DNA from: Psammoneis japonica
Taxonomy: Eukaryota
Direction: 5' to 3'
Length of the DNA stretch: 25,288 bases
Assembly: GCA_008632985.1 (NCBI GenBank)
Contig: QPGO01000256.1
Span: 62,001-87,288 of the forward strand
Below, piece after piece: positions 2,758 to 25,288 of the stretch. Position numbers and translations under genes: made by a program. Within the stretch, counting starts at the first letter, position 1; the number at the start of each line of letters is the position of its first letter. The notes beneath the pieces were generated by a model. That model was given only the letters and a program-made list of their open reading frames with translations. It did not search any database and was not told the DNA's origin.

Positions 2758-5235
2758 ATGAACCGTTCCAACAAGCCGCCGACCAAGTTTTATGATGACA
2801 CCTATGAAAGGGGTGGGCATGGTAGAAATGTGGAGGAGGAAAAACAAGAGACAGTTCAAGAAGATCAAGAGGAGCAGCAAGAGAGGGAAGAAGCTCCTGT
2901 TACTGGAGCCTATGCAGTCAATCGTGATGGCGTGGTGCCGAGAGCCGGAAGAAATCCTGACAGCGTCACTCTCATGTCGGAACCCGAGAGCATTGATGCC
3001 TCTAGTGTTGTCACCCCTGGTACCCGCAATCAAAGCGAGCTACTTGTCCAAGCTCAACTTGCTCAAGTGACGGATGAAGAAGTGGCTCGGCTTCAAGAAG
3101 AAAATATTCTTCTTCGCCGATCCATTCCTTTGGCACAAGCCCAGGTTGCGGAACCTTTCGGGACGCCCTCTGATGACACCGAACACCATGTCGACTCAAC
3201 TGCTTCGAACAGCAAGAACGATGTTGATCCTAATGACGAGGAAAAGAAACTGCGTTACAACTGTTACATCATCGGAGGAGTTGCTGTTTTAGTCATTGCT
3301 GTAATTGTTGGAGTTGTTGTAGGAGTGAAGCCCTGGGACAACGGTGGAGGAAGCGGCGAGCAGTCAATGAAAGAATCTACCGGATTGGTCATGAGTTTGA
3401 TTGGCTTGGAAGCAGTGTTTGACAAGGCCGACTCGGACTTATGGGCTACCGTATCCAAGGAGTACATTGAGGACTTTTACAACAGTCGCCGACGCCGCTT
3501 GTTGCGCTCTTTACCGACGACCATTATTCACAATGTCGAAACTGCACTGGAAGTAACCGACACTAGTGTCGTTAAAGGTGGCAGTAACAACAACGGCACT
3601 GATTCTTCATTGGTTGTCACGTATGCCCAATCTATCATGTATAGATTCGAGGAAGAGGATGTTTCTATTGATTACTTGGTGACTGAACCATTCAGAACGT
3701 CATCCAGAAGAATGGCATACGTGGACGGCCTACAGGACGCGGGTGTCGCTCAAGGCGAGAACGTATTCGACAACTTGGCTGGCGTCAGCATGGGATCGAC
3801 TACACCAAATCCCTCCTCTCCGTATCCGACAAACACACCGACACAAGATCTCATGTCGCCTCCATCAACACTTGCTCCGACACCAACGCTGACTGCGCCT
3901 TCCACCCAAGAGTTAACACGATCTCCCACAGTCGACCCGACTTCTCCACCTACTGCAGCTCCTACCACTCCAAGTCCTACCCAAGCTTCCACGGTAGCCC
4001 CCGCCACTCTGGCTCCCACTCAAGCCCCGATGCCTTTGCCGCCAAATGTGACGTGGAATCCCGTCGGACAAGTCCTGCACGGCAAAGCTGCAAACGATTT
4101 TTTTGGCAGATCCGTCTGCTTGTCACGAGATGGAATGGTCATGGCGGTTGGAGCAAAGGAGATGTCGTCTGATCCCGGTTATGTTTCCGTCCATCGATAC
4201 AATCAAGCTACAAAAGAATGGATGAATGTGGGTCAGGAACTAGTTGGACAAGCCGACAATGACAAATTTGGCAATTCCGTGTCGTTGAATGGCGATGGTA
4301 CGATCCTTGCTGTCGGCGCCCCCCGTGGCGGATCGGACGCTGGACATGTACGAGTGTTTGAATACAGCCCTTTATCTGATGGTTGGGTTCTGCTTGGAAG
4401 CGACATTATTAAAGGACAATCCGTTGGCGGCGGTCGTTTTGGTTGGACTGTGTCACTCTCGGATGACGGAGGTATTCTTGCTGTGGGAGCTTTATCGGAC
4501 GATACGGAAAATGCTGAAGATTCTGGATCAGTGCGGATGTTTGAATACAATCACGGCACCTCATCCTGGAAGCAGCTTGGACAGACCCTGATTGGTCAAG
4601 TGGCAGATGACAATTTTGGTTTGTCGGTTTCCTTAAGTAGATCGGGTAGCATTGTTGGCGTTGGAGCGAATTTGGATGATTCGGGTGGACGCGATGCTGG
4701 TCAGGTGTCGGTGTATGAATACAATTTTTTGACGTTAAGATGGGATCCATTGGGAAGTCCAATCAATGGACAAGTCGAAGGCGGTTGGTTGGGATCATCG
4801 GTTTCTCTTGATGACAGTGGTTTGATCGTGGCCGTGGGTGCACATGGGACAAGCAACGAGAGAGTTGTCGTATATGCAAACGATCGCAAAGCGTCCTCGT
4901 GGAATCAACAAGGCCAAACTCTTTTTACGACTCAAGAAGACGACAAGTTTGGTTGGTCTGTGTCGTTGAGCGGAAATGGTGATGTCTTGGCTGTTGGAAG
5001 TTATTGGCATAACGTGAACACTAGACCACGCGCGGGTCAAGTTGCAATATTTCAGTACGACACCAACAGCGCCCAGTGGAATCAAGTAGGCTATCCCTTA
5101 AATGGTGCCACTTCATCCGAAAGTTTTGGATATTCTGTGGCCTTGTCCGCAGATGGGAGCCTCTTTGCAGTTGGTGCCCATCGCCGTGGTTCTTGGTCCG
5201 GTTCCGCATATGTATTCACGGCAACCAAAACTTAA
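2758..5235 (+). CDS. Single-pass membrane protein with Pro/Thr-rich stalk and C-terminal FG-GAP (integrin-alpha-like) beta-propeller repeats
   Basis: Intronless ORF, first ATG 2758. TM segment YIIGGVAVLVIAVIVGVVVGV, RRRRLLR motif, repeated PT(x)AP linker, and about seven repeats of FGxSVSLSxDGxxLAVGA...G.V.V(F/Y)xY...W..(L/V)G. Confidence 0.88.
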   Translation: MNRSNKPPTKFYDDTYERGGHGRNVEEEKQETVQEDQEEQQEREEAPVTGAYAVNRDGVVPRAGRNPDSVTLMSEPESIDASSVVTPGTRNQSELLVQAQLAQVTDEEVARLQEENILLRRSIPLAQAQVAEPFGTPSDDTEHHVDSTASNSKNDVDPNDEEKKLRYNCYIIGGVAVLVIAVIVGVVVGVKPWDNGGGSGEQSMKESTGLVMSLIGLEAVFDKADSDLWATVSKEYIEDFYNSRRRRLLRSLPTTIIHNVETALEVTDTSVVKGGSNNNGTDSSLVVTYAQSIMYRFEEEDVSIDYLVTEPFRTSSRRMAYVDGLQDAGVAQGENVFDNLAGVSMGSTTPNPSSPYPTNTPTQDLMSPPSTLAPTPTLTAPSTQELTRSPTVDPTSPPTAAPTTPSPTQASTVAPATLAPTQAPMPLPPNVTWNPVGQVLHGKAANDFFGRSVCLSRDGMVMAVGAKEMSSDPGYVSVHRYNQATKEWMNVGQELVGQADNDKFGNSVSLNGDGTILAVGAPRGGSDAGHVRVFEYSPLSDGWVLLGSDIIKGQSVGGGRFGWTVSLSDDGGILAVGALSDDTENAEDSGSVRMFEYNHGTSSWKQLGQTLIGQVADDNFGLSVSLSRSGSIVGVGANLDDSGGRDAGQVSVYEYNFLTLRWDPLGSPINGQVEGGWLGSSVSLDDSGLIVAVGAHGTSNERVVVYANDRKASSWNQQGQTLFTTQEDDKFGWSVSLSGNGDVLAVGSYWHNVNTRPRAGQVAIFQYDTNSAQWNQVGYPLNGATSSESFGYSVALSADGSLFAVGAHRRGSWSGSAYVFTATKT

Positions 5236-5439
5236 AAATTGTACCTCTTATGTTCTTCCTTTCCTATCGGTTGCACTGCATTTGTAATTCATTTCATGGC
5301 AGTGCAAGGACGGCAACATCGACATCAAGGGACGATGAGAGTTGCAATCAGCTTGATCTTGAACGCATTTCGCATTGCAAAATTAGTTCGCACAAATCTC
5401 TCATCAGCGCACCAACCACGAGTGGCTCCATCATAATGA

Positions 5440-8200
5440 TGGCTCCACACAGTGTGTTTTGCCAGAGTCCATTTGGCAACAGCCTAAAAAAGCAGGACAT
5501 CTTCCTGAAGAAGATGTGCATTCTTGTTCAGAAAAAAATGTCCGCATTGCTAGATTGTTTTGCTTTAAAATTTTTTGCTGGTGGCATCAAAACTCACTGC
5601 TTTTGGATCTCATTAATCTTGTCTGCTTCTGTTTCTTTGAGGTTGGCACTCAATTTTGCTTGAGCAAGATCCCTCCAAGCCCTCTTTCTGGCAACAAATG
5701 TGACACCTGCCCAAGGATGTGAGAGGAGTGAGGTGCATCTGTCCTTCCCCAATGCAGCTTCAATGGCTGATCACCACCCATGCTGCTCAGGGGTTTGTCC
5801 TGCTGTGTTGGAGGTGGGTTTTGGCAGAGTGAACTTTTGCCAGGGTGGTTGACACAGCTCGTCCCCAACTTTTGTTGCAGCCTTTTTCACCAGGAGTGGC
5901 CACAAATTCACAAGCAAAGAGGTGCTGCTGTCAGCTGCTGTGGCATCACATTGATCCAAAATTGAGAAAGCAGCGTGGTTGCTCAGGGAATTCACCAGAA
6001 GCAAGACTTGGTGCCATTTTCAGACTGGTTTCATGTGCACACTTGTGCTTTGGCACAGATGCCATTTTGCCAGTTTTTAATTTGTTGCTGTGATGCACAG
6101 CAGCCAGTGTCAAGTGACAACAGTCATTTCTTTTCATTCTTGGAGAAGCATTGGATTTCTGATTGGCAACGTTCATTGGCTTGTCTGCACTGGATGTGGC
6201 TCCATCATCTGTGAGTTTGCCAATGTCACACTGGACTTTTCCAAAGCTGCAAAGTCCACCTGGTGGTGGTGACATGTCAACTCACAAGGCTAGAGTTGGT
6301 GGTGCTGGAGCAGAGGCAATTGGATCCAGGGGATGCACCTTGTTGTGTCCCATGCCATGGACAAGCAGGCATCGGCCAAGTCAACCACAGTTTGACAAGT
6401 TCCCATGCAAAAGAAGTGTGGTGAGCTCTTGGTCCAGCCCGTGGGGAGCACCAGCAGCAAGGCCACCAGTGGCTCCTCTCCCAGTCCCAAAGGGAAAGCT
6501 GTTCTGAGCTTGGCCATGTCCTCCAGGCACAACCCAACTCTGCAGAATCTGTCCAAGAGATCCAGATCTATCATGTGAATGAATCTGCTTGGAGTGTGTT
6601 GCAGAACACTCAATCCAGTGCATGGCCAAATTGCATGGCCTCCAGTGGAGCAGGCTTGTGTGTCTTGTTGTTGAGACCACAGATGCTGCCTGCAACCAAC
6701 CCCACGGTGCAGTCTCCAGTGGATGGATGGCTGCCACAATCAACAGCCACCCAAATCTTGGAGGATGCCCTGTCTTCAGCAGTGAGTTGGACTGGGGCTC
6801 CATCACAGCAAAGACTTTCCAACAGCCTGGCAGCTGGATGGGGCAGCTCACTCACAGACCATGGTGCCAAATGAACTCCCTGTGTGGATGTTTCTCAAAA
6901 TGGAGCCAGCCTGAAGATTGTGAGAGTTTGATGCCTTCAACCACTGACTCACTCCAAGGGGGCTGCTGGTGTTGGTCAGGCAAGTTGGCAGGTGAGGGCT
7001 GCAGGTGAGTCCACTGACTTGCTGCTGGCCCAACACTTCAGGTGGAGAATGCCGCCAGTGTGGCTGCTGGCACCACCACTCCATCATCTTGAGGGTTGGG
7101 CAAATGTTCATGTGCAAAGGCACTCATGGCAGTGTGCTCACATCATGGTGCTGGGTTGTGACAGGTGCCACATTGCTCACAATTTGTCAAAGCACGTGCC
7201 TTTGAGAGGACAGTGGGAGAGGCAAATCTCACATGGGGCTCCACTGATGTTTGTTTGTTGAGGTGCAAAGCACTGCCACAGAGTGAGCAAACAAATTCCA
7301 GCCTGTTCTCACAGGGCCGGGGTTTGTGACAGCAGCTCCAATCATGCCAGTGGAGAGTCAACACTGCCTTGGGGATCCTTGGTTGATTTTGGACCCTGGC
7401 CCATCAGATGGGTCAGAAGTGAGAGCACACACTTTGTCAGGTGTTGGCAAGCAGTCTGGAATGCATGGGACTCCTCCTTGCATGAGTCAGCACAAGACTC
7501 CAGTCATGATCTGGATGACCTCTCAGCAGATCCACGGCAGAACATTGCCTTTGAGAACTCTGTGTGCTGGACTGTTTGAGAAGATCCACCACCATGTCCC
7601 GCCAGTCTTCCTGGCAGAACTCATTGCCTTGAAAACCAAAGATGTGCCCATCCTAAAGGTGAGGTTGTGACCAACTGTAAGTGGGAGAGGGTGACAGATG
7701 CAAGTGACTTGACAGCCGGCACACTGCAGCTTGGCAGTGCACACATGGCCACCGCTCTCTGGATCATGCACAAGAAGCAGGTGTTCCAGAGTGCAAGTGT
7801 GGAAGCCACAAACATCCATGGCACAATGGCTGAGGAGGTTGGTGGTGCATTCTCCACCCAAATGATTGCTTTGATCATCTGCTTGTCTTGAGAGTTTTGG
7901 GAGGTGCGAGTGTGGTGCTTCAGCAGCTGTGAGGGGGACAACAGGAGCCACGCTGAAGCATGGTGTGTGTCACTTTCTTTTTCAACATTGCAACTGCTGC
8001 TGTGGTCAATGGGTGGCAACAAGTTGCAAAACAGAATGCCATGGCATTCCGATCCGTTCAAGGTTGTGGGCGGGGCCAGCCATCCATGGCTGGCCTGGGC
8101 CAGGCACGGGCCGTACCTTGCCAGACACGTCTGTCCGTCCCATCGCAGCTCCAGTTGAGGGAAATCGAAAAGTGGTTATGTCGTACGCAGATCTATGTAG
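5440..8200. mobile_element. Decayed transposon block (boundaries approximate), almost devoid of TpA and CpG
   Basis: Abrupt compositional change between two genes. By hand, 5 TA in 5641-8100 and about 15 CG in 5641-8040. Contains an RT remnant. No termini could be defined. Confidence 0.75.
6370..6860 (-). pseudogene. Frameshifted reverse transcriptase remnant of a tyrosine-recombinase (DIRS/Ngaro-like) retrotransposon
   Basis: Minus-strand fragments LPHPAARLL..L..DGAPV, GLN...APLEAMQFGHALD, IHMIDLDLLDRFCRVGL (cf. KxDLSDGFYR) and AFP.G.GEEPLVALLLVLPTGWTKSSPHFFC (cf. LPMGWxxSPPYFC), in RT order. Recognised from memory, not searched. Confidence 0.7.
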
Positions 8201-8400
8201 GGGCCCTAGGTAGAAATGCACATGAAATTGTACTAAATATCATCTATAGCATTGAGGAGATTCAAATTATATGTAAATACAATTTTGAATATAATTATTA
8301 CAGTACAAACCCCTGTACATTTCTACACAACTCCATTTCCCGCGGTTTTTGCCTCCAGAGAAAAAATGATAACCTTACTCTCTCACAACAAAGCAACACC

Positions 8401-11400
8401 ATGGACGACGACTCGAATCTTTTACCGTCCGACAACATCATGCCTACAATGAAAAGTCGCAACAACAACGACGACGACTCGAGTAGTACTATCAGTAGTA
8501 GCAGTGACTCGTCGTCGTCCTCCGAAAGCCACGACGATTCGTCCAGCAGTGACGATGATGATTCTTCCGCGAGCAGCACCAACGACGTGGAGATGAATCC
8601 TTCCATCATCCATCAAGACTCCACCAACAATACAATTCCTGCTACGGTCGCGACGACGACGACGATACAACGACCAAGTCCGGTACAAAATCCATATCGT
8701 CCTTCCAAAGTAGAACCTCATGCTTCCACCGCTACGAGTGCTCCACGTACAGATTCTACGACGAGCAACAACGGTACTGCTTTGTCATTCCAAAAGAAGA
8801 AAAAGAACGAACCCACCGCATCCGTTTTTCCAAAAACTACCGCGTCCACTTCGCTTGTTCCGCCACATCGTCAAGAACAGAAACCACAAGTACCAGCCTC
8901 GACGGACGATTTGTTATCGTGCTTTTTTCAAGACTCCACGACGACCAACAACGACAACTGCGGTAGTAGCAGCAGTGCTTTTTTTGACAAGCACAAGCCG
9001 ACAGTAGCTGCATCTGATCTTCCGATCGCTACTTCTGCTTCGCAGCCGTCTCGTAAGCAACAAGAACAACCAGCACCATCACCCGCCGTCAATAGTACTA
9101 CTACTCCAGACGATTTCCTGTCGAGACTTGAACATGAGTCGTCATCCATTCCACAAGCTCAAGTCATCAATCCTCAAGAGATTCTTGCTCGTCGATGTTG
9201 TTCCAACAAGAATACTCCAGTATCCTCCAAAAAGCAACCCGTCGTTGTGCATTTATTGACACGCCAAACCCGTCCCAACCGTCCGTGTCTTGCAGTCAAG
9301 CAAGTGTTCGCCAATAATCATCATGATGGTGCAGCACAAGACTTGTTTCCATTCCAACAGTTCAATCCCATGCAATCGGAAATGGCATACCGTGTGGTCA
9401 ATCATAATAATTCGTCTCCAAAGAACATTGTTCTTTCGGCACCGACGGGAGCAGGCAAGACGAGTATTTTTGAAATGGCCATGGCGCGCATCATCTTGTC
9501 GTCGTCGTCGAACCAACAAGAACAACAAAAAATGGTGTACATGGCTCCAAGCAAGGCACTCTGTCAAGAGCGTTTCGAGGATTGGTCTAAGCGATTTGGA
9601 ACTCGAATCCACATTGCAGTGTTGACGGGAGACACTCTTGATGAGCAAGAATCGGCCTTTGCGACATTGGCATCGGCACAATTGATTTTGACCACACCGG
9701 AAAAATGGGATTCACTATCTCGGACATGGACGCATCATCACTTTGACCTGTTTGCCGCTGTCAAATTGTTCATGTTGGATGAAGTCCACTTGTTGGGTGA
9801 TGCGAGCCGTGGAGCGTGTTTGGAATCCATCATTTGTCGAACCAAAATGATTCAAGAAATCGTTCAAGCCTGCAAGGATGTGAACGGGTGAGTACAACGC
9901 AAGTTGAGCATTTGTACCGTAGTATCGCTTTTGTATCATTTCAAAACAACTCACCGACTCGTATCTATTTTTTCTCCGTCTAATGTCATACTACAGTTTC
10001 TCCCACGACACTCTTCCACAGCCATCAATACTCCAATCGGATTTACGAATCATTGCCGTTTCGGCCACACTTCCCAATTTGGCTGATATCGCTTCCTTTC
10101 TTCAAGCCAACGAGTGTTTTTGTTTTGACGATTCCTATCGTCCCGTTCCACTCACCACGCACGTGGTGGGATTGGGAAACATAATCAAGGGCAACACCTT
10201 TCTCTTTAATAGGAGTCTCAACAAACACGTGTCGCAAATCCTACAGCGCTTTTCGAGAAACAAGCCAAGCATTTGCTTTTGTCATACCAAAAAGGAAACG
10301 GAGCAACTCGCCGTGGAGTTGGCAGCGTCAAATAAGAATCCAAAGGAACCGAGGGCTCTACACACCCTCGCAGCCAAGACCAAGGTAGTGCAGTTGCAAA
10401 AGTGCTTGATGGGGGGATTTGCCTATCATCATGCCGGACTGGATGCCGACGATCGCAAGCTTGTCGAAAACGCCTTTGTGGCGGGTCAAATCTCATGTTT
10501 GTGTGCCACATCGACACTGGCCATGGGTGTCAATTTACCAGCGCACCTTGTCATCATCAAGGGCACGAGCGCGTGGCGTGGACAAGGAGGTCATCAAGAC
10601 GTGGATCGAGCGCAATTGTTGCAAATGATGGGACGAGCCGGACGACCCGGTTTTGATACCAGTGGGACGGCCGTCATTATGACGGATCACGCCTCCAAAA
10701 GACGTTATGAACAAGTCTCAAGTGGACTGTTGTCCACCGTTGAAAGTCAATTGCCCAATTCCTTGGTGGAGGTCTTGAATGCGGAAATTTCACAGCGAGT
10801 CATTGGATCCGTCGACCAAGCCATGTCGTGGATCAAGAAAACTTTTTTCTATCGTCGAGTGAGAACCAATCCGTCTCATTATGGTATGCTTATCAGGACG
10901 CCGGCGGATTTGGATGCTCAACTGCGGGATCTCGTTGTGCAGTCGATTGAAACGTTGAGCAGGCAAGGAATTGTATCAATTACTAGCAACGAAACGGTGG
11001 TTCCAATGCACGCCTCTCACGTCATGAGTCAGCACATGGTGGACTTTGATGCCATGAAGAGGATTGAGTGTCTACCGCACGATGCGGGACAACTCGACTT
11101 GCTTCAAACCCTGACGGAAATAGAAGGACTCCACCGACCGGTCCGTCGCGACGAGAAACGGAAGCTAAACAATATCCACAAAATGATTCGGTATCAGCTT
11201 CCCGGCCCACCCAGCAAGATTCGCATTCAAACTCCGCAACAAAAGGCCTTTGTCTTGTTACAAGCCGCCATTGGACAGCACAAATTCGACGACTACACGC
11301 TCCGTCAAGAAGTATCGTCTGTGGTGGAGTATGCGACGCGCATGTTGACGGCGGCCCAAGAGTACAGCGTGGACGCAAGCAAGCACGGTCAAGTGGCGCT

Positions 11401-13472
11401 GCAGAGCTTGCGGTTGCGACGGTCGCTGGCGACCAGCCTTTGGGGTGCTGGCAAGGAGGGGTTGGTTCTCAATCAGCTCTTGGGCATTGGGCTCAACACG
11501 GCAAAGAAGCTGAAATTCAACAAGATTCTGTCCTTTCAGGATGTCTTGCATACTTCGGCCGAGGATATTGAAAAGGCGGCGGCTCGATCTGGTGGATTCG
11601 GAAAGGACCTGAGGGTGGTGGTATCCAAGATTCTCAAGAGTACTCTTACCTTGACGGCCAAGGTGGAGAACGATAAAGATTCGAATCATTCTAAAGAGAT
11701 TGTTTGTACGTTTGCCAAAAACACCAGCTACGACGCCTTGATGGAGAGTTCCGCGTCGACTGGTAAGGACGCCACTGCCAATACCCGTCTCGTTACGTAC
11801 ACTCTTGCAGTTTACACGGATCGGCCAGGCGGATGTCTCCTGTTTCAGTCCAACATTGCTGGTCCCGGCGAGTACCGAATTCCGTGCCCGCCCGAATTCG
11901 GAAAAGTGTTTGTTCACGCCGTGTCTAATCTTGTTGGGCTTGACGAGTATCTTGAACTCCAGGGAAACGCCGAGGTGGTGAAATCCAAGTTCACCGCAAA
12001 CCCACTAAAATCAAAGGAATCGAAAAAACCGCGCAATACTTCCAATGCGTCCATCGACACGAAGAAAATGGCTCCCTCTCATTCTCAGTTTCGAGACTGC
12101 GTCAAGAACGTTGGAGACTTTCGTATCAAGAGCAAGCCCCCAGTGAAAAGCAAGAGATCATTGTTTCAGGGAAGCAAAAAGACTCCTGCAAAGGGAACCC
12201 ACGCAAATGGCAATAGTAATTTGACAGTCACCCCGTCACCGCCGCCACTGAGTATGGCGGCGGGTAGCGCCAACACTACCGTCGAGCGTGCTCCGCAGCC
12301 AATGGCTACAAGTACCAGAACATTCAATAACAACAGCAACTGGAGCCCACCTCGAAATCGCACACCACCGAGAAGCGCTGCTAGGTCAACATCGTCGGAA
12401 GCCAAGCCGTGGAAGAGGGCGAAAACCGAACAAAAGAATCTTCAGAAGCGAGCATTTCGGACCAAGAGCGAGAATCCTTTTGCGGAGTATTCGTTCGACC
12501 CGTGAGTAGAATTTCTCGCTTTTTGATCTGCACGAACTTTTGTTGAACTCGTTGTGCTCACTCTCTTTCGCTTCATCTAATACATTCAGGAATGACATTG
12601 AAGGCACCCTATTTCAGGCTGCCACAAAAAGCCAAGGGGAGCATATTCAACAAGAGGCACCCTCCGTGATCCCTCCCGGCACGTTTGAATCATTGCGGGC
12701 CGCTCACCAAACTCCGCAGTACCGACACTCGAGCGCCCCCTATGGGGCATCGGGAAGGGTGTTTAATCGCGCATTCAACACCGGACACCGCAAGAGAAAG
12801 GGAACAGGCCCGCGAATTCCAGAGACGGAGCTACTTCATATGAAAGCCGCGGAGCAAGAGAGACATGCACGAGAGCAACTTCAAAATAGCAGCCGGCGCC
12901 ATGACTCTCAGCAGTCAGGCATCTTTTTAAAGATGAGGAACGCCAGGCCAACTGTCTTTCCTCAAAACCATCCGTTCAATGACAATGTCTGCGGTGGTTC
13001 TAACATGATGGAAGAGTCGCTTGCTTCACCACCTCGATGCAATGACAGCTTGGGAGGGTCTATGGTTGCTGATGAGTGGGGTCCGCCGGAGCCAAGCTAT
13101 CGGAACGCACAAGGAAACTTTCAAGACGAAAGAGGTGCAATGCCCTGGTATGGATATTCTCTTGGTGCAGAGCCACCCAAGTACGGAGGAAACATAGCTA
13201 ACGAGCCCGTATACACTGGCGATTCCTCGACATGGGATACTTTCGAGACCCAAGGGGATACATTCGTCGGCCAAGAAAACCGACCAATCGGTTCGCAAGA
13301 TGAATGGCACCAGTCTCAACCAGTGGTGTACAGAGTACCAGTAGAAACTTCCAGGACCCCAAGAGGCGTAGTAGAGCCCACCCCAAGGTCCAGCTTTATT
13401 GAGCAGCAACCGAATTCACAACGTTCAAAGAGAAATTTGGAGGAAGAGAAGCTGCTCGAAGCTTTTTTCTAG
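8401..13472 (+). CDS. MER3: Meiotic DExH-box Ski2-like DNA helicase MER3/HFM1 with Sec63 domain; exons 8401-9887, 9997-12501, 12590-13472 (1624 aa)
   Basis: Motifs FNPMQSE, SAPTGAGKT, MAPSKALCQER, TTPEKWDSLSR, LDEVHLLGDASRGACLE, IIAVSATLPN, YHHAGL, TSTLAMGVNLPAHLVIIKGT, QMMGRAGRPGFDTSG, then a Sec63 region. Introns 9888-9996 and 12502-12589 (both GTGAGT...CTCAC...CAG, phase 2) join three ORFs in frame, 4875 nt total. The start codon is the likeliest choice, not proven. Confidence 0.9.
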
Positions 13473-18952: not shown

Positions 18953-19899
18953 CCCTTTGACACATGGCCACTGTTATTTGGGGCCTGGCCCCAAATAATG
19001 CGCCATTCTGATTGGTCTAAATAAATAAATCCACAAGTAAATTTTGGCGGGAAAATAACGGCTAAATCGCTTGGGGCCTGGCCCCAAATGCACAAGGTTC
19101 GAGTGACGAATGTGCTCGAGGCATTGAAAGATTTTCATGGCTGTTTACGTCGATTGTTGCACTGGTGTGTTGAGCGATCACACGCGAAAACCCAGACGAG
19201 AAAACGAGATTTTTTGCCTCCGCAACAGCATCCATAGATGGCGACTCGACCGCCATTTCGGTGGCCGGAGAAAATGGCGGGAAAGCTGCAACCGTCATGC
19301 AGGAATCTCAGATTTCAGAATTGTTTGTTGGTGGAAACAAAAAATGAAAAGGAGTGGTTGAAAGTGCCGCATGGCAACAAACATCAAACCACCACAAGTT
19401 TGATTCTTGTTCTTGCTTGTTGACACAAAGTCAAATCTTACGGTGCCAAAATGATCAACAATCAAAATGAAAGTTGCGATGTAGATAAACCAAGCATGGT
19501 TGTTTTGATCGTGTTGTTTTCATTCATCTCAGACAACAATGAGGTGCTCGCCGTGTCGCGAACCTGACATTGTCGACTTCCCCCTGATTTGCCATGTTGT
19601 TTGCTCATCTGTGATTGACACACCGTTGATTTGGATGGAAAACAACCATGTGGCTAAAGTGACAACCAAACAGACACACATGAACACACAGAGTTCATGC
19701 TGTGAAGACCTGTCAGAACAGAGAGCAAATGGGGTCTCGCGTCCTGAAACCGCCATCATCGAGTCGTCGTGGTTCCCGTTTGCAAGAGCAGGCATCGTGC
19801 TCAAATCATGGTCGTCAAGATTCTGTCAGACAAAATGTCTGACCGTTAAATTCTCATTTGGGGCCTGGCCCCAAACAAGCAATTTCATGTGTCAAAGGG
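18953..19899. mobile_element. Non-autonomous piggyBac-like DNA transposon (947 bp), 195 bp upstream of the VPS15 start
   Basis: Perfect 14-bp TIR CCCTTTGACACATG (18953-18966) / CATGTGTCAAAGGG (19886-19899). At both ends a 7-bp spacer is followed by the palindrome TTTGGGGCC(T/A)GGCCCCAAA, with a third copy at ~19071-19088. Flanks are ATAA (18949-18952) and ACAA (19900-19903), consistent with a mutated 4-bp TSD. CCC...GGG ends suggest piggyBac. No transposase recognised. Confidence 0.8.
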
Positions 19900-19903
19900 A
19901 CAA

Positions 19904-20562
19904 CAGACGGAAAATCTGAAAAATGCACGCACACACGAAAAGTGGGGGATGAGCACGCAGGCAACTCTTTACAAACTGTGCAGGAAATGTGCCAGGGTTT
20001 GTGTAGAATTTGACAATGACACAATTCCATTTTGATGGCGACAAGTGGAAACACACATGGTTTTCCAGTGCAAATTTGACAGCGACGCCACAGACGGAAT
20101 CATTGTCAACACACCAAAAACTGCATCAGGTTTTCGATCACAGGGAATTCCTTGTTTGGCGCTTGACTTCCCCAGACAAGGAAAGACAAGGAACCAAGAA
20201 AAGGAAAAATTAATTGGTCATTCAATGTGCAGTTGCAACCATCATGATCCTTTCATCCAGCTAGAAGTTGATTTGTCCAGAGCCTCTGGCTGCCAAAACA
20301 CCTCTTTTTGTGCAATGCACTCAATGGGTGAGGCAGACACCACTGGGGGGCACTTTCTCAAGGACAAAAAGATGTGCTTCCACGGGGTTTCTTCAAGTGC
20401 AATCTGCTTGAAGCAAGCCCACAAAAGCTCAAGTTGGTGTGGCAAATCTGGCGCACATTGTGCAACAAAACAAAAGAGGAAAGCCTCTTTGTTTCCTTCA
20501 TTCAACAAGCCAATGAGGGGGGAATCAAGATGTCCCGTGAGCATGAGAGCGGGGTTTTGGGT
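19904..20562. other. TpA-depleted decayed sequence of unidentified origin, probably another repeat fragment
   Basis: Same compositional signature as the flanking transposons; no protein motif recognised. Confidence 0.4.
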
Positions 20563-20841
20563 TGACAGAAATTGAAGGGCAAATGGCAAGAATTCAAACA
20601 ACAACTCCTCACTGCTGTCTAAATGGCAGATGAGTCTCCACTCAGAGACCGTCACAGGAGCCAAAAGACGTGCAAGTCGGCACAATCGGGCTGCTGTTGT
20701 CATTCTTGTGAGCTGTGTGGCTCAAAAGCAAACTGCATCGCATGCACACGTGTGGAGCTGAAGAGCACAAAAAACTGTGTGCGGTGAACTAAATGGCATG
20801 CGACATTTTGCGCACACCCAAATCTTGTTCAAATCCTGTCA
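20563..20841 (-). repeat. 3' LTR (279 bp) of the copia remnant, preceded by a polypurine tract
   Basis: Minus strand reads ACTGGGGAG (PPT, 20842-20850), then TGACAGGATTTGAA...TTCAATTTCTGTCA, with TG...CA ends and short terminal inverted repeats. Lies just downstream of the RNase H remnant. Confidence 0.9.
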
Positions 20842-21241
20842 CTCCCCAGTTTGCTTGAGGAGTCACAGAAACAGATTCGAAGTCGGATTGGTTGAAAGCC
20901 TTGGGATCGAAGTTCCAAAACATTAGAGGATGAAGGAGGTTCCAGATTTGGGAGCAACCCCAATGCTTGCTGAGGATGTCAGCCGGGTTGCGGGAGCCTT
21001 CGATGGAATGAAACCTGAGGAAACCGGAGGCAATCGCCTCACGCACATGATGGAATGAGAGGGTGGTGTGTCACTTGTGCAACTTGGAGTGCGGGATGGC
21101 AGCACTGTCCACAACCGACTCTTGTTGTTTTCAGGAAGATCATCATTTGCAGGCCACGGAGAGACACTGCTCCGGAACAGACAATGTCGACGGGCCCGTC
21201 TGTGAGGTGTCCATCAGCAACAAGCCTTGCTTTGTGCCGTC

Positions 21242-21638
21242 GACGCGTTCCAGATGCAGGTGGGAATCCGTGTGACATTGGGCCCGTAGACTTCTGCATG
21301 CGGAGCTCCGCAGTAAAATCACACGGCAATTAAAATGTCAATGATCGCCAACAGAAAATGAGGCAATTTTGCGAATGCACAAACTCACACATGATTGAAG
21401 TGCATCATTTTTTACTTGGCCAGTTGCATTCTTCAGACATTGAAGAATGTAACTGGCGCACTGTTGTTTCTATAAATTTGTCATATAAAACGTCTGGGGC
21501 TTCGCAAAACAGCGAGTCTGGACAATTTTTTTTAAATGTCACACGTAGAAATCTACGTGCAAAACACACGACGGATGACAAAAATTGTTGTTGTCACACG
21601 TCAGCACTGCGAGCTCCCACCTGGGGCTGGAACGCGTC
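21242..21638. mobile_element. 397-bp MITE nested in the copia RT, 4-bp TSD
   Basis: TIRs GACGCGTTCCAGatgCAGGTGGGA / TCCCACCTGgggCTGGAACGCGTC. TSD CGTC at 21238-21241 and 21639-21642. Excision restores DVKHDG-R-HKARLVADG. Confidence 0.9.
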
Positions 21639-21943
21639 CGTCCATCATGTTTGACATCACAGATGAGATGCACCCGGATCTTCTTGTGTCCTGATGGAGC
21701 ACTGGAATCATTGTGGTGTCTGCAGTTGTGGAAGACCTTGCACTCATCAAGCTGTCAGACAACGCCACAGAGCCCGCATCATCAAAGCCATTGTGTCTCC
21801 CCACTTGCGGTTGCCATTGCACTCATCAAGGGCCATGGCATGCTTGCAGTCCCGTGGCACTTCATGCCCGTGCTTGCATCATGGCACAGTGCAAAAGGAG
21901 CGCAACTTGGCTTGGTTGGCCATGCGGAACAGCTTCTTCTGAT

Positions 21944-22222
21944 TGACAGGATTTGAATGGGATTTGGGTGCACGCGAAATGTCGCACGCTGTTTAGTTTG
22001 CCGCACACAGTTTTGTGTGCTCTTTAGTTCCGCGCGTGCGCGCACGATGTAGTTTGCTTTTGAGCCACAAGGCTCACAAGAACAATGACAGCAGCCCAAT
22101 TGTGCCGACTTGCATGTCTTTTGGCTCCTGCAACAGTCTCTGAGCAGAGACTCATCTGCCATTTAGACAGCAGCAAGGAGTCATTGTTTGAATTCTTGCC
22201 ATTTGCCATTCAATTTCTGTCG
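21944..22222 (+). mobile_element. Solo LTR (279 bp) of the same copia family, inserted in opposite orientation into the pol region
   Basis: Colinear, gap-free match to the reverse complement of 20563-20841. TSD CTGAT at 21939-21943 and 22223-22227. Removal restores GWRRFCKMTLH-QKKLFRMANQAKLRS. The terminal CA reads CG. Confidence 0.93.
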
Positions 22223-23680
22223 CTGATGAAGGGTCATCTTGCAAAAGCGTCTCCATCCTTTGGTTTCTAGAAGGCCGTGCTCACGCACGCAGACAGCACA
22301 GGTGATGGGGTTGTCCTTGGCAATGACGGCAAGGGGTTCGGACGTGATCTCCCCATTCTCCCATTCAAGCATGACGTTGCAGCTTGAGCCTTTCCAAGAG
22401 GGATCATGGGGTTGCAATGGTCCCTCGTGCAACACGATGCATCGGAACTTCCAGAGGGCAGTGTCCTCGTCTTCTTGCTCAATGTGGTGCATGATGTCAT
22501 TGCAGGCCAGGACTTCCTCACATTCGTCATTGTTGATGGAGCAAATGAACTTGACCAGTTCAGGATTGTCTCCGATTTTCCAGTCATGGTCCTCAACGGC
22601 TTTGACGATGCGGGCTCTGTGGCGTTGTCCATCCTCTTGTGGCTTCATGAGGAAGGTGCGTTCTGTGATGTCCTTGGGGTCAAAGACCGGCATTTTGGGC
22701 ATCCTGATTGCCTCCCCATCTGGTGAATCTGGCAAATCCTGGGAGTCGTGGCGGGATTTAATGACAGGTTCAGCAGATTTCTTGTCAGGAGGATCAAGAT
22801 GCAGGTTTGGAGCAGAGATGGATCACGGGCGGGGCGCACGTTGGAACGGCAGGGAATCTTCTGAGTGTCGTCAGAAAGAATCTTGACCATCATTTGGTGG
22901 CCAATGTGCTTGGCAATGCCAACGTCAGTGTCATTGGGCTTCGCGTTGGAGCGGGCAGAAGGTGCAAATCCGGGAGGTTTCTCACCTGAACGGGCAGAAG
23001 GAGGCCGTTCAGGTGCCAGGAAACGTTGCAAGTCACCGGGTGGCAGGGGCTTGCGCCTGGTGAGATGAGCCAGAATGGGGTTGGCATCGGCTGCATCGCC
23101 ACCTACGAGCACAAATGAAAGTAGAATCAAGCATGAAAAGTGAAAATTGTGAGATTGAATTTTGCTCTGTGATTTTTGGTTTCTCCGAATGAGCTCTCAA
23201 TGGCCTAAAGCTTCTGCACTGCTTCTACAGACAAAAGGCCTTTCGGAGAATATATTCGTGACAACAGATTGTCCGGATGCGATTGCTGTTGACACGTAAG
23301 ATGTCAACATCGTCAATCGATCGTATTTGCAATTTTCGACATCCGATCAACTCTGTGTGGCATCGTTCTGTCCTTTGTACGCATCCACGACTGTGGTACG
23401 ATTGACATATATAATATATAATTCCAAATATGTATATAACAGTCGCATGCTGCATTCGCCTCCCTAATTGCGCATTAGAGTTATTCGTTAAGTGGAATAA
23501 TTTGACTGACATTGACACTGTCAATAATGTCTCCACGTTAACTGTATTGTGCCATTAGCAATGACTGTTGTTGTTTTATATTATAGGCCAGCATAGGGCC
23601 GGCCGTTTCACTTTCCAAATGTCTTTCGAGAGTGTCATGGTTTGTCTCACGCTCTATGTGTATATGTAACGGTGCATGTG

Positions 23681-23694
23681 TATATATATATATA
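23681..23694. repeat. (TA)7 microsatellite within a TA-rich island
   Basis: tatatatatatata. Confidence 0.7.
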
Positions 23695-24341
23695 AATATA
23701 CTGTAGTATTGCGTCGAGTGGACAGAAGGAGCAATTGTCCTGCTGTTCTTTCATGGTATCGATTGTACATAGCATTCTGCCCAGCACTCGATGTACAGTG
23801 CGCTCCTAATTGGCGTTCACTTACTTTACTTACTTGTGGATTTCGCCATATTGCTCTATTGCACTACCACGTTTCATAAGTAGTAATTAACGATGGTCAA
23901 GGATATGACCATTTCGTCTTGACATTCAATCCTGTGATGGTTGTGAATTCCATCATGGATTTTTTGTACTTTAACCATCTGTCAGTTGGATTTTAATCGT
24001 CATTTGGACGTTTCTTTTTGACATGCCGGTGTCATTTTGTCTTTCCGAAGGCACTGCTTTCGTGCACTAAGTGGATAATGTCCATTTTTCTTTTCTTTTT
24101 CTGAATCTTTGGCACCCCTGTGGCAGGGGAGCTGTGTGTGTGTGCGTGGTTGTGCGCGCACGGCTTCGCCGTGCGTTGAGTTTTAATGTCAACATCCGCA
24201 CGAATGTGTGTGTTCCACAAGTAAAAATTCCCATTCCACAGCTCCCCTGAAACTCCAACCACCAAAAACCGAGGGGTCGGAAGCGCACTTTCGGGAGCTC
24301 TTTTTCTCCGCACAAAAAACACGCGTTTCATCGACTCGACC

Positions 24342-25168
24342 ATGATGATGCCTCGTAGTTCTTCCCCATCGCCTTCCCAGGACGCCGATCCTGCTGACAC
24401 CGTTGCTGACAACACTGACACAACAGGTGATGTCATCATTCCGGTTCTCGTGGGTGTGACACGCACAAAATAAGATGCTACAAACTCACACTGTTGTTTG
24501 CACGCTCCACCGCCTCCCACAGATGCTGTCACGAATTCCAACACCGCACCTGCGTTTCGGGCCCCTGGCATGCCCGATGCTGTCACTCCTGCCCTTGCTG
24601 CCGCAGGTGCTGTTGATGCTGTCATTGCATTTTGCCAATGACGTCCACAATGAAATGCTGACAACTCACACTTCTTTCATTCTCGCCCCACCGCCTCCCA
24701 CAGATGCCATCACGAATTCCAACGCCGCACCTGCGTTTCGGCCCCCCAGCATGCCCGACACTGTCGCTCCTGCCCTTGCTGCCGCAGGTGCTGTTGATGC
24801 TGTCATTGTCTTTTGCCAATGACGTCCACAACGAAATGCTTGTAACTCACACTTCTTTCATTCACGCCCCACCGCCTCCCACAGATGCCATCACGAATTC
24901 CAACGCCGCACCTGCGTTTCGGCCCCCCAGCATGCCCGACACTGTCAACCCCACCCTTGCTGCCGCAGGTGCTGTTGACACTGTCATTGTTTTTGCTTTG
25001 GAAGGAGCACAATGGATGACGGATGACGGCGGACCAGGAAACCCACGCAACCACGGCCTGCTGATGGACGACACATCAATGGACATGAATGGTGCCTCTT
25101 GGTCAGCTCTCGAGTGCAGTCCAATCTTCAGAATGTGCAGGCACATTGTGCAGCTCTCTGTAAATTAG
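24342..25168 (+). pseudogene. Candidate spliced gene or pseudogene built from duplicated 84-nt exons; exons 24342-24426, 24523-24606, 24704-24787, 24885-(24968 or 25168)
   Basis: Three 96-97 nt GT...CTCAC...pyrimidine-rich...CAG segments, all phase 1. Splicing gives MMMPRSSSPSPSQDADPADTVADNTDTT then three copies of DA(V/I)TNSN(T/A)APAFR(A/P)P(G/S)MPD(A/T)VxP(A/T)LAAA. Lies in TpA-depleted DNA, so probably repeat-borne or dead. Confidence 0.5.
24470..24996 (+). repeat. Tandem repeat, 181-bp period, about 2.9 copies
   Basis: CCGCCTCCCACAG ends at 24522, 24703 and 24884. GCCGCAG|GT junctions at 24606, 24787 and 24968. Confidence 0.92.
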
Positions 25169-25288
25169 AAACCTGACAACAAGCAGGCATGCTTTCACAG
25201 TTTTTTAGTTTCAAGTTGGAGAGGTCAGCGAATTGGCATTTGTTTGCAGGCGACTTGGCAAGGTTTCAAATGGTGCATGTGACTTGGC

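Follow-up and report, generated by a model that had tools for sequence, protein, structure and literature searches.

How can a stretch of transposon-derived DNA lose nearly all of its TA dinucleotides and still hold many CG? The question is raised by the window, the whole stretch of 25,288 nucleotides of Psammoneis japonica (contig QPGO01000256.1, assembly GCA_008632985.1) that we analyzed. A first-pass annotation had described a copia segment at 22223–23100 with 2 TA and about 40 CG, and a block at 5.6–8.0 kb that lacks both dinucleotides. It had called the two losses uncoupled and had offered two reasons, namely that TA removal saturates before CG decay does, or that A to G and T to C changes regenerate CG. 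The two blocks were taken to represent different stages.

TA and CG along the window

Both dinucleotides were recounted. Segment 22223–23100 (878 bases) contains 2 TA and 40 CG, as counted before; base composition predicts 45.0 and 63.7, which gives observed/expected ratios (o/e) of 0.04 and 0.63. In 5600–8000 (2401 bases) the earlier number of 15 CG stands (o/e 0.09), and TA is found 6 times (o/e 0.04), not 5 times. The window's genes have a TA o/e of 0.51–0.52 and a CG o/e of 0.99–1.01. Even at the TA frequency of these genes, the probability of two or fewer TA in 22223–23100 is 3e-8, and the CG contrast between 22223–23100 and 5600–8000 has p = 1.3e-11. Chance is excluded as an explanation of the TA/CG contrast. 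The other o/e values measured in 22223–23100 were AA 1.16, GA 1.06, AT 1.20, CA 1.81 and TG 1.23. The loss is specific to TpA and is matched by a gain of CpA + TpG.

Three TA-poor domains, blocks A, B and C, were resolved from a 250-base profile, the location of each TA and each CG, and the counts (Table 1). Block A lies between two host genes and block C extends to the window end. G+C is 0.52–0.54 in the TA-poor blocks versus 0.49 in the genes. The block borders are sharp and the adjoining genes are untouched. Within the window, TA loss is confined to mobile or foreign DNA and the neighbour genes are spared.

Table 1. Coordinates of the features in the window (o/e, observed/expected ratio)
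Feature	Positions	Strand	Description
Block A	5615–8113		Both TA and CG erased: 5 TA (o/e 0.04), 20 CG (o/e 0.12), CA+TG o/e 1.86
Block B	19236–23103		TA-poor, CG loss partial: 30 TA (o/e 0.12), 151 CG (o/e 0.64)
Partner copy of 281-base pair	20564–20844	plus	
Truncated copia relic	20906–23082	minus	Collinear tblastn matches of 24 relatives
TIR element inside copia relic	21243–21639		397 bases with terminal inverted repeats (TIR), unmutated: 12 TA (o/e 0.40), CG o/e 1.04
Insert in copia relic	21941–22221	minus	Inverted copy of 20564–20844, 85.8% identity over 281 bases
Copia segment	22223–23100	minus	Copia polyprotein stretch between integrase and reverse transcriptase
Spacer between blocks B and C	23104–24067		Unmutated, TA-rich: 68 TA (o/e 0.81), CG o/e 1.06, G+C 0.40
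Block C	24077–25288		TA-poor, CG largely kept: 9 TA (o/e 0.14), 65 CG (o/e 0.78)
181-base tandem repeat in block C	24466–24996		2.7–2.9 copies, 89–91% identity, TA-free, CG-rich

The neighbour genes have long uninterrupted frames and encode a ShK/2OG-oxygenase protein, an FG-GAP protein, a Sec63-type helicase and a VPS15-like kinase. The Sec63/Brr2-type helicase is split over the adjacent frames 7957–9891 (DEAD/ResIII) and 9923–12505 (Helicase_C, winged helix, Sec63); the probable cause is a frame change or a short intron. A host helicase compared with the ESM Atlas matched eukaryotic clusters of Sec63/Brr2 type only. The 5′ end of frame 7957–9891 lies within the TA- and CG-free zone.

To compare the placement of the two losses, we used 101 bins of 250 bases, among which 30 were TA-poor (o/e ≤ 0.2) and 11 were CG-poor. 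All 11 CG-poor bins were inside TA-poor bins (Fisher p = 3e-7), and CG o/e within TA-poor bins ranged widely, from 0.00 to 1.11. The processes are thus co-targeted but unequal in extent. In this one window, TA and CG o/e had a Spearman correlation of 0.55 over the 101 bins. At block A, the borders of TA and CG depletion lie within about 60–200 bases of each other: at the left edge TA becomes sparse between 5286 and 5615 and CG ceases after 5419, and at the right edge CG reappears at 8050, TA at 8114. The word “uncoupled” therefore describes the extent of the two losses and fails for their place.

Such joint placement could come from a single deaminase or targeted complex that acts efficiently on A at TpA and, as a slower side reaction, on C at CpG, with no methylation decay. 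No CG-poor bin lies outside the TA-poor ones, the borders of block A are shared, and the positive bin correlation also fits one machinery with two activities. The wide range of CG o/e within TA-poor bins speaks against it, as do the repeats and relatives described below.

We also considered a sequencing or assembly artefact, for example the miscalling of modified bases. Contig depth on block A is 63–71, like that of the neighbour genes, versus 10^3–10^5 on block B. Contigs of run X1 reproduce 5000–6568 with 0 differences and 6570–12466 with 3. Block A is not an assembly slip, and these contigs, possibly the window's own source, are not independent proof of it. This last circumstance leaves some room for an artefact. 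Against one stand the agreement of the read-built contigs over block A, the coherent protein-level changes, the same signature in an unrelated metagenomic contig (L071), and the unmutated elements with sharp borders inside mutated DNA. We consider an artefact extremely unlikely.

One of the two long X1 contigs stops at 6568 and the other starts at 6570, on either side of one of the five surviving TA in block A. Position 7054 is CG in the window versus CA in both contigs. Alleles may differ at 6569 and 7054, just where the mutable dinucleotides lie.

The copia relic and its conserved columns

The 213-residue minus-strand frame at 22184–22822 was used as the query for copia relatives. It gave 24 protein relatives at E ≤ 0.001, 40–57% identical to it, and 17/24 carry PF07727 (RVT_2). 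The earlier label of copia is correct, and this protein similarity indicates Ty1/copia homology to RVT_2-bearing elements. By tblastn, 22223–23100 matches residues ∼1033–1262 of the 1845-residue relative P0002 (40–57% identity). The element around it has no N-terminal part. Its reverse-transcriptase core is deleted, with the relatives' residues ∼1385–1765 absent at 21132/21121, and two later insertions (21243–21639 and 21941–22221) break it further.

No credible copia match was found outside the relic when the 24 relatives were compared with the whole window by tblastn (E ≤ 10), and self-comparison of the window found no LTR pair for it. The 85 stop-to-stop frames of at least 60 residues from the three TA-poor blocks, block A and 19236–20900 included, gave no credible Pfam hits; their best E-values were 0.005–0.05, for unrelated families. 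Because the reverse-transcriptase core is deleted and a Pfam hit of its own and an LTR pair are absent, we call it a relic, not an intact element.

Block B was matched by 8294 contigs of run X1, and the family is therefore very abundant. Several of the X1 contigs join 21236–21242 directly to 21638–21648. Since these contigs skip the TIR element, other copies of the family are without it. The TIR element was either inserted after hypermutation or escapes hypermutation. Summed contig depth at 23116–23762 is ∼30000, so the spacer between blocks B and C is repeated DNA as well, yet it is not hypermutated. Among contigs matched at 80% likeness there were 638 variable places, where transitions dominate (A>G 134, T>C 118, C>T 143 and G>A 114, versus 11–22 for each transversion).

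We aligned the relic with its 24 copia relatives and defined a conserved column as at least 60% agreement among at least 10 relatives, which gave 319 columns. The relic is identical to the consensus at 241 of them. All 11 Tyr columns were changed, eight to Cys (TGY) and three to His (CAY). On the sense strand this is A>G eight times and T>C three times, and the TpA change acts on both DNA strands. The 23 Arg columns gave a different picture: 14 still read CGN, 2 still read AGR and 7 were changed. The changed columns hold His (3), Cys (2), Gln (1) and a stop (1), the exact products of CG to CA and CG to TG. Transitions from CG to TG or CA are present, as in CpG decay. Loss at Tyr (11/11) and at CGN arginine (7/21) differs with a Fisher p of 4e-4. 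Within one element, as had been proposed, TA loss has reached saturation and CG decay has gone only part of the way.

The 78 mismatches to the consensus consisted of 14 of TA type, 21 of CG type, 26 other single-step changes and 17 multi-step changes. In view of the last two classes, the consensus approximates the ancestor only roughly; at 40–57% identity, much of what separates it from the relic is lineage difference.

The bases next to TA were also recorded. Tyr codons preceded by a pyrimidine became TGY in 6/6 cases, and those preceded by a purine became CAY in three and TGY in two (p = 0.06). Surviving TA were counted in 5615–8113, 19236–23103 without 21243–21639, and 24077–25288. After strand symmetrisation, 50/64 were TAR, versus 39.5% expected from control copia loci (p = 5e-10), which suggests that the mutator prefers TAY over TAR.

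Repeat pairs, relatives and mass balance

The insert in the copia relic and its partner copy allow both changes to be followed after a duplication. Mismatches occupy 40 positions of the 281-base pair and comprise 11 CA|TG sites, 2 TA|TG, 9 CG|TG or CG|CA, and 7 others. The copies have 6 CG and 2 TA in common and no TA|CG site. Because these paralogues differ by CA|TG, CG|TG and CG|CA, both changes took place after duplication, in chromosomal DNA and on either strand. With random strand choice assumed, the per-copy CG loss is ∼0.43 (binomial range roughly 0.2–0.7) and ∼2/11 of the CA|TG sites would stem from ancestral CG. The per-copy TA loss of ∼0.87 is rough: CA|TG can also come from CG, so the value rests on assumptions, and it requires the 281-base ancestor to have had ∼22 TA, a rather high number.

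Editing of retroelement RNA by an ADAR-like enzyme (A to I) is expected to leave A>G on the transcribed strand alone, acquired before integration. We rejected it, as both strands are changed, the differences lie between paralogues already in the genome, and a tandem satellite and an intergenic block are also affected.

In the tandem repeat of block C, units 1 and 2 have 9 CG in common, 2 CG|CA differences and 3 CA|TG sites. Discordant CG sites are thus 2/11 in the array versus 9/15 in the 281-base pair (p = 0.05) at similar background divergence. This difference counts weakly against a single deaminating machinery. It also bears on another possibility, that the blocks are of the same age and that their CG contents differ by methylation state only, with 5.6–8.1 kb heavily methylated and no stages involved. 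Block C keeps its CG (o/e 0.78) despite TA erasure, the few CG differences between its units accompany a background divergence like that of the block B pair, and papers on CpG methylation of diatom transposons have appeared. In block A, on the other hand, no coding relic was detected. Self-comparison of the window found no repeat partner for it and no repeat linking it to block B or C, and its contig depth is far below that of block B. These three features fit an older relic, though none of them is a clock. A difference by methylation state alone is unlikely in our view. The reading of the two blocks as different stages is compatible with the data and plausible, and a methylation difference could look alike.

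To compare the counts with a mass balance, we simulated both losses on controls consisting of 25 undecayed relatives and the window's genes. Conversion of 93% of TA gave a TA o/e of 0.06 and a CA+TG o/e of 1.46, and lowered CG o/e from 1.00 to 0.85. TA conversion raises G+C, so CG o/e falls though the CG count is unchanged. A CpG o/e in TA-converted DNA is deflated by this G+C gain and should be read with caution. The same conversion with 40% CG loss gave CA+TG 1.65 and CG 0.56, and with 90% CG loss it gave 1.89 and 0.11. The observed CA+TG and CG values, 1.45 and 0.63 in the segment, 1.57 and 0.64 in block B, 1.62 and 0.78 in block C, and 1.86 and 0.12 in block A, fall along this simulated series. 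True CG loss in 22223–23100 is about a quarter to a third, below the face-value 37%. One misfit was seen. Block A has a G+C of 0.523 versus 0.479 in the simulation, so its ancestor was richer in G+C (about 0.54) or fewer CG were lost than assumed. The ancestral CG content of block A is not fixed by any recognisable relative.

Relatives of the copia segment were also collected from metagenome contigs, mostly from other hosts, and the best 80 of 196 confirmed related loci were compared. Over whole loci, this set of 80 has a median TA o/e of 0.65 and a median CG o/e of 0.75, with a TA–CG correlation of r = 0.31. Locus L071 (2766 bases) carries the same signature as the segment, with a TA o/e of 0.02 throughout and a CG o/e of 0.44. 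Locus L072 has the opposite pattern (TA 0.70 with CG 0.05), and a CG o/e of 0.26 or less with a TA o/e of 0.41 or more occurs in 11/80 loci of this best-80 set. CG loss without TA loss points to an ordinary, independent cause of CG loss. Such loci count against a single machinery, which we regard as rather unlikely. The first-pass annotation was right to treat TA loss and CG loss as separate processes, which differ in completeness in the relic and are separable among the relatives.

Two side observations were made on these loci. In L059, bin 3301–3600 has a TA o/e of 0.00 and a CG o/e of 0.08, and the adjacent bin has 1.03 and 1.45. In L072, L029 and L030, the homologous stretch has 1, 2 and 2 CG, normal TA and 0 stop codons; these elements are depleted of CpG but apparently still coding.

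In the homologous stretch of ∼600 bases, 79/80 relatives of the best-80 set have at least 5 TA versus 2 in the window. CG o/e in this stretch is 0.55 in the window, below the values of about 1.0–1.37 reached by undecayed relatives, and the CpG-rich ancestor that had been named as a way to refute the contrast is not needed. Could the CG of the segment be something other than survivors, either inherited from such an ancestor or regenerated by A to G and T to C changes? At a few positions the relic has a CG-containing codon and the relatives have Lys, Leu, Thr or His, and an Ile to Val change converted one CpA into CpG. These cases are outweighed. CpA and TpG are the only products of a change at TpA alone, so that CpG cannot result; simulated TA conversion leaves CG counts as they were; 21 replacements are CG losses; of the six A>G or T>C replacements outside TpA in conserved columns, one created a CpG; and TA|CG sites number 0 in the 281-base pair. 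The proposal that CG is regenerated is thus abandoned, and non-survivor CG as a whole is very improbable.

Two processes and their relation to known systems

The two losses are best explained by two mutation processes on the same silent transposon-derived DNA, with fast TpA loss and slower CpG decay, and we hold this to be the probable account. The first process would change TpA to TpG or CpA, that is A:T to G:C at either strand, quickly and near to completion. The second would be a transition decay of CpG to TpG or CpA, several-fold slower and variable between blocks, most simply by deamination of methylated cytosine. In the copia segment, the first process would be finished and the second about one third done; in the 5.6–8.1 kb block, both would be nearly finished. 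What is observed here is the direction of the changes, the fact that they struck both strands and continued after duplication, their unequal completeness in one element and their common domains. The account further supposes that CG decay depends on 5-methylcytosine and that block A is older rather than more heavily methylated.

Fungal RIP, in Neurospora and others, is a dinucleotide-specific transition hypermutation of repeated or mobile DNA that runs to saturation and destroys coding capacity. Its direction is C to T, mainly CpA to TpA, so that TpA is enriched and G+C is lowered. The process seen here is likewise specific to a dinucleotide, targeted to repeated or mobile DNA, saturating and destructive of coding capacity. 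Its direction is opposite: TpA is removed, CpA and TpG go up, and G+C goes up. RIP itself was rejected as a candidate, since TpA is almost absent, CpA/TpG is in excess and G+C is 0.52–0.54 versus 0.49 in genes.

Methylated transposons lose CpG by deamination of 5-methylcytosine. The CG loss in the window resembles this decay in its products (CG to TG or CA, with CGN Arg changed to His, Cys, Gln or stop in 7/21 columns) and in its limitation to transposon-derived domains, while genes keep a CG o/e of 1.0. Unlike plain 5-methylcytosine decay, CG decay in the window occurs only inside TA-erased domains; this comparison is made at the level of sequence.

The nearest known case to the TpA change is in Bigelowiella natans. 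In two integrated viral regions of this organism, TpA to TpG or CpA is almost the sole de novo change, according to the main text of a preprint (Mettrop et al., bioRxiv 10.64898/2026.01.13.699255). The same text proposes a DNA adenine deaminase for the process, and it reports that reverse-transcriptase and DDE domains are enriched among TpA-poor genes (bioRxiv 10.64898/2026.01.13.699255). A full-text search of the literature found TpA erasure described for Bigelowiella and found no description for diatoms. The words “CpG”, “diatom”, “trinucleotide”, “context”, “flanking” and “neighbour” do not occur in the preprint's main text.

The window shares with Bigelowiella, as the preprint text describes it, the change of TpA to TpG and to CpA on both strands, the restriction of this change to mobile or foreign DNA, other parts of the genome being spared, and the long-term depletion of TpA with an excess of CpA+TpG. 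Several features differ. De novo mutations were seen in Bigelowiella, whereas the end state alone is seen here. TA o/e of 0.04–0.14 in the window is near saturation, versus 0.45 in the viral region of the preprint. The targets here are an LTR-retrotransposon relic, a satellite and an intergenic block, and the host is of another lineage. A second, slower CpG decay is superimposed here, which has no counterpart in the preprint text. The result is a refinement of the TpA-erasing phenomenon, not a new kind of system.

The preprint text also touches on the idea of one machinery for both losses. Its reference to ADAT2-type enzymes, with a reported deaminase activity on A as well as C in DNA, would suit that idea, and its 0 occurrences of “CpG” count against it. 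Under the preferred account of two processes, the first would be DNA adenine deamination, by analogy with the proposal for Bigelowiella.

We tentatively suggest a more specific form of this account, in which the first process would be a fast, element-directed defence by DNA adenine deamination, independent of cytosine methylation, preferring TAY and triggered per element. The per-element trigger is proposed because the unmutated 397-base element and the 964-base spacer lie in or between saturated DNA. If the reading as methylation-independent is true, the TA-free blocks that retain CG are hypermutated DNA that was never methylated, and the targeting signal of the mutator would be something other than 5-methylcytosine, for example homology, small RNA or chromatin.

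A natural A:T to G:C mutator at TpA is known from a single 2026 preprint. The contrast between TA and CG described here gives a clear test of whether such a mutator depends on cytosine methylation. Saturated TpA loss with lagging CpG decay in one element provides an internal order of events, and two clocks of different speed offer a way to date silent DNA.
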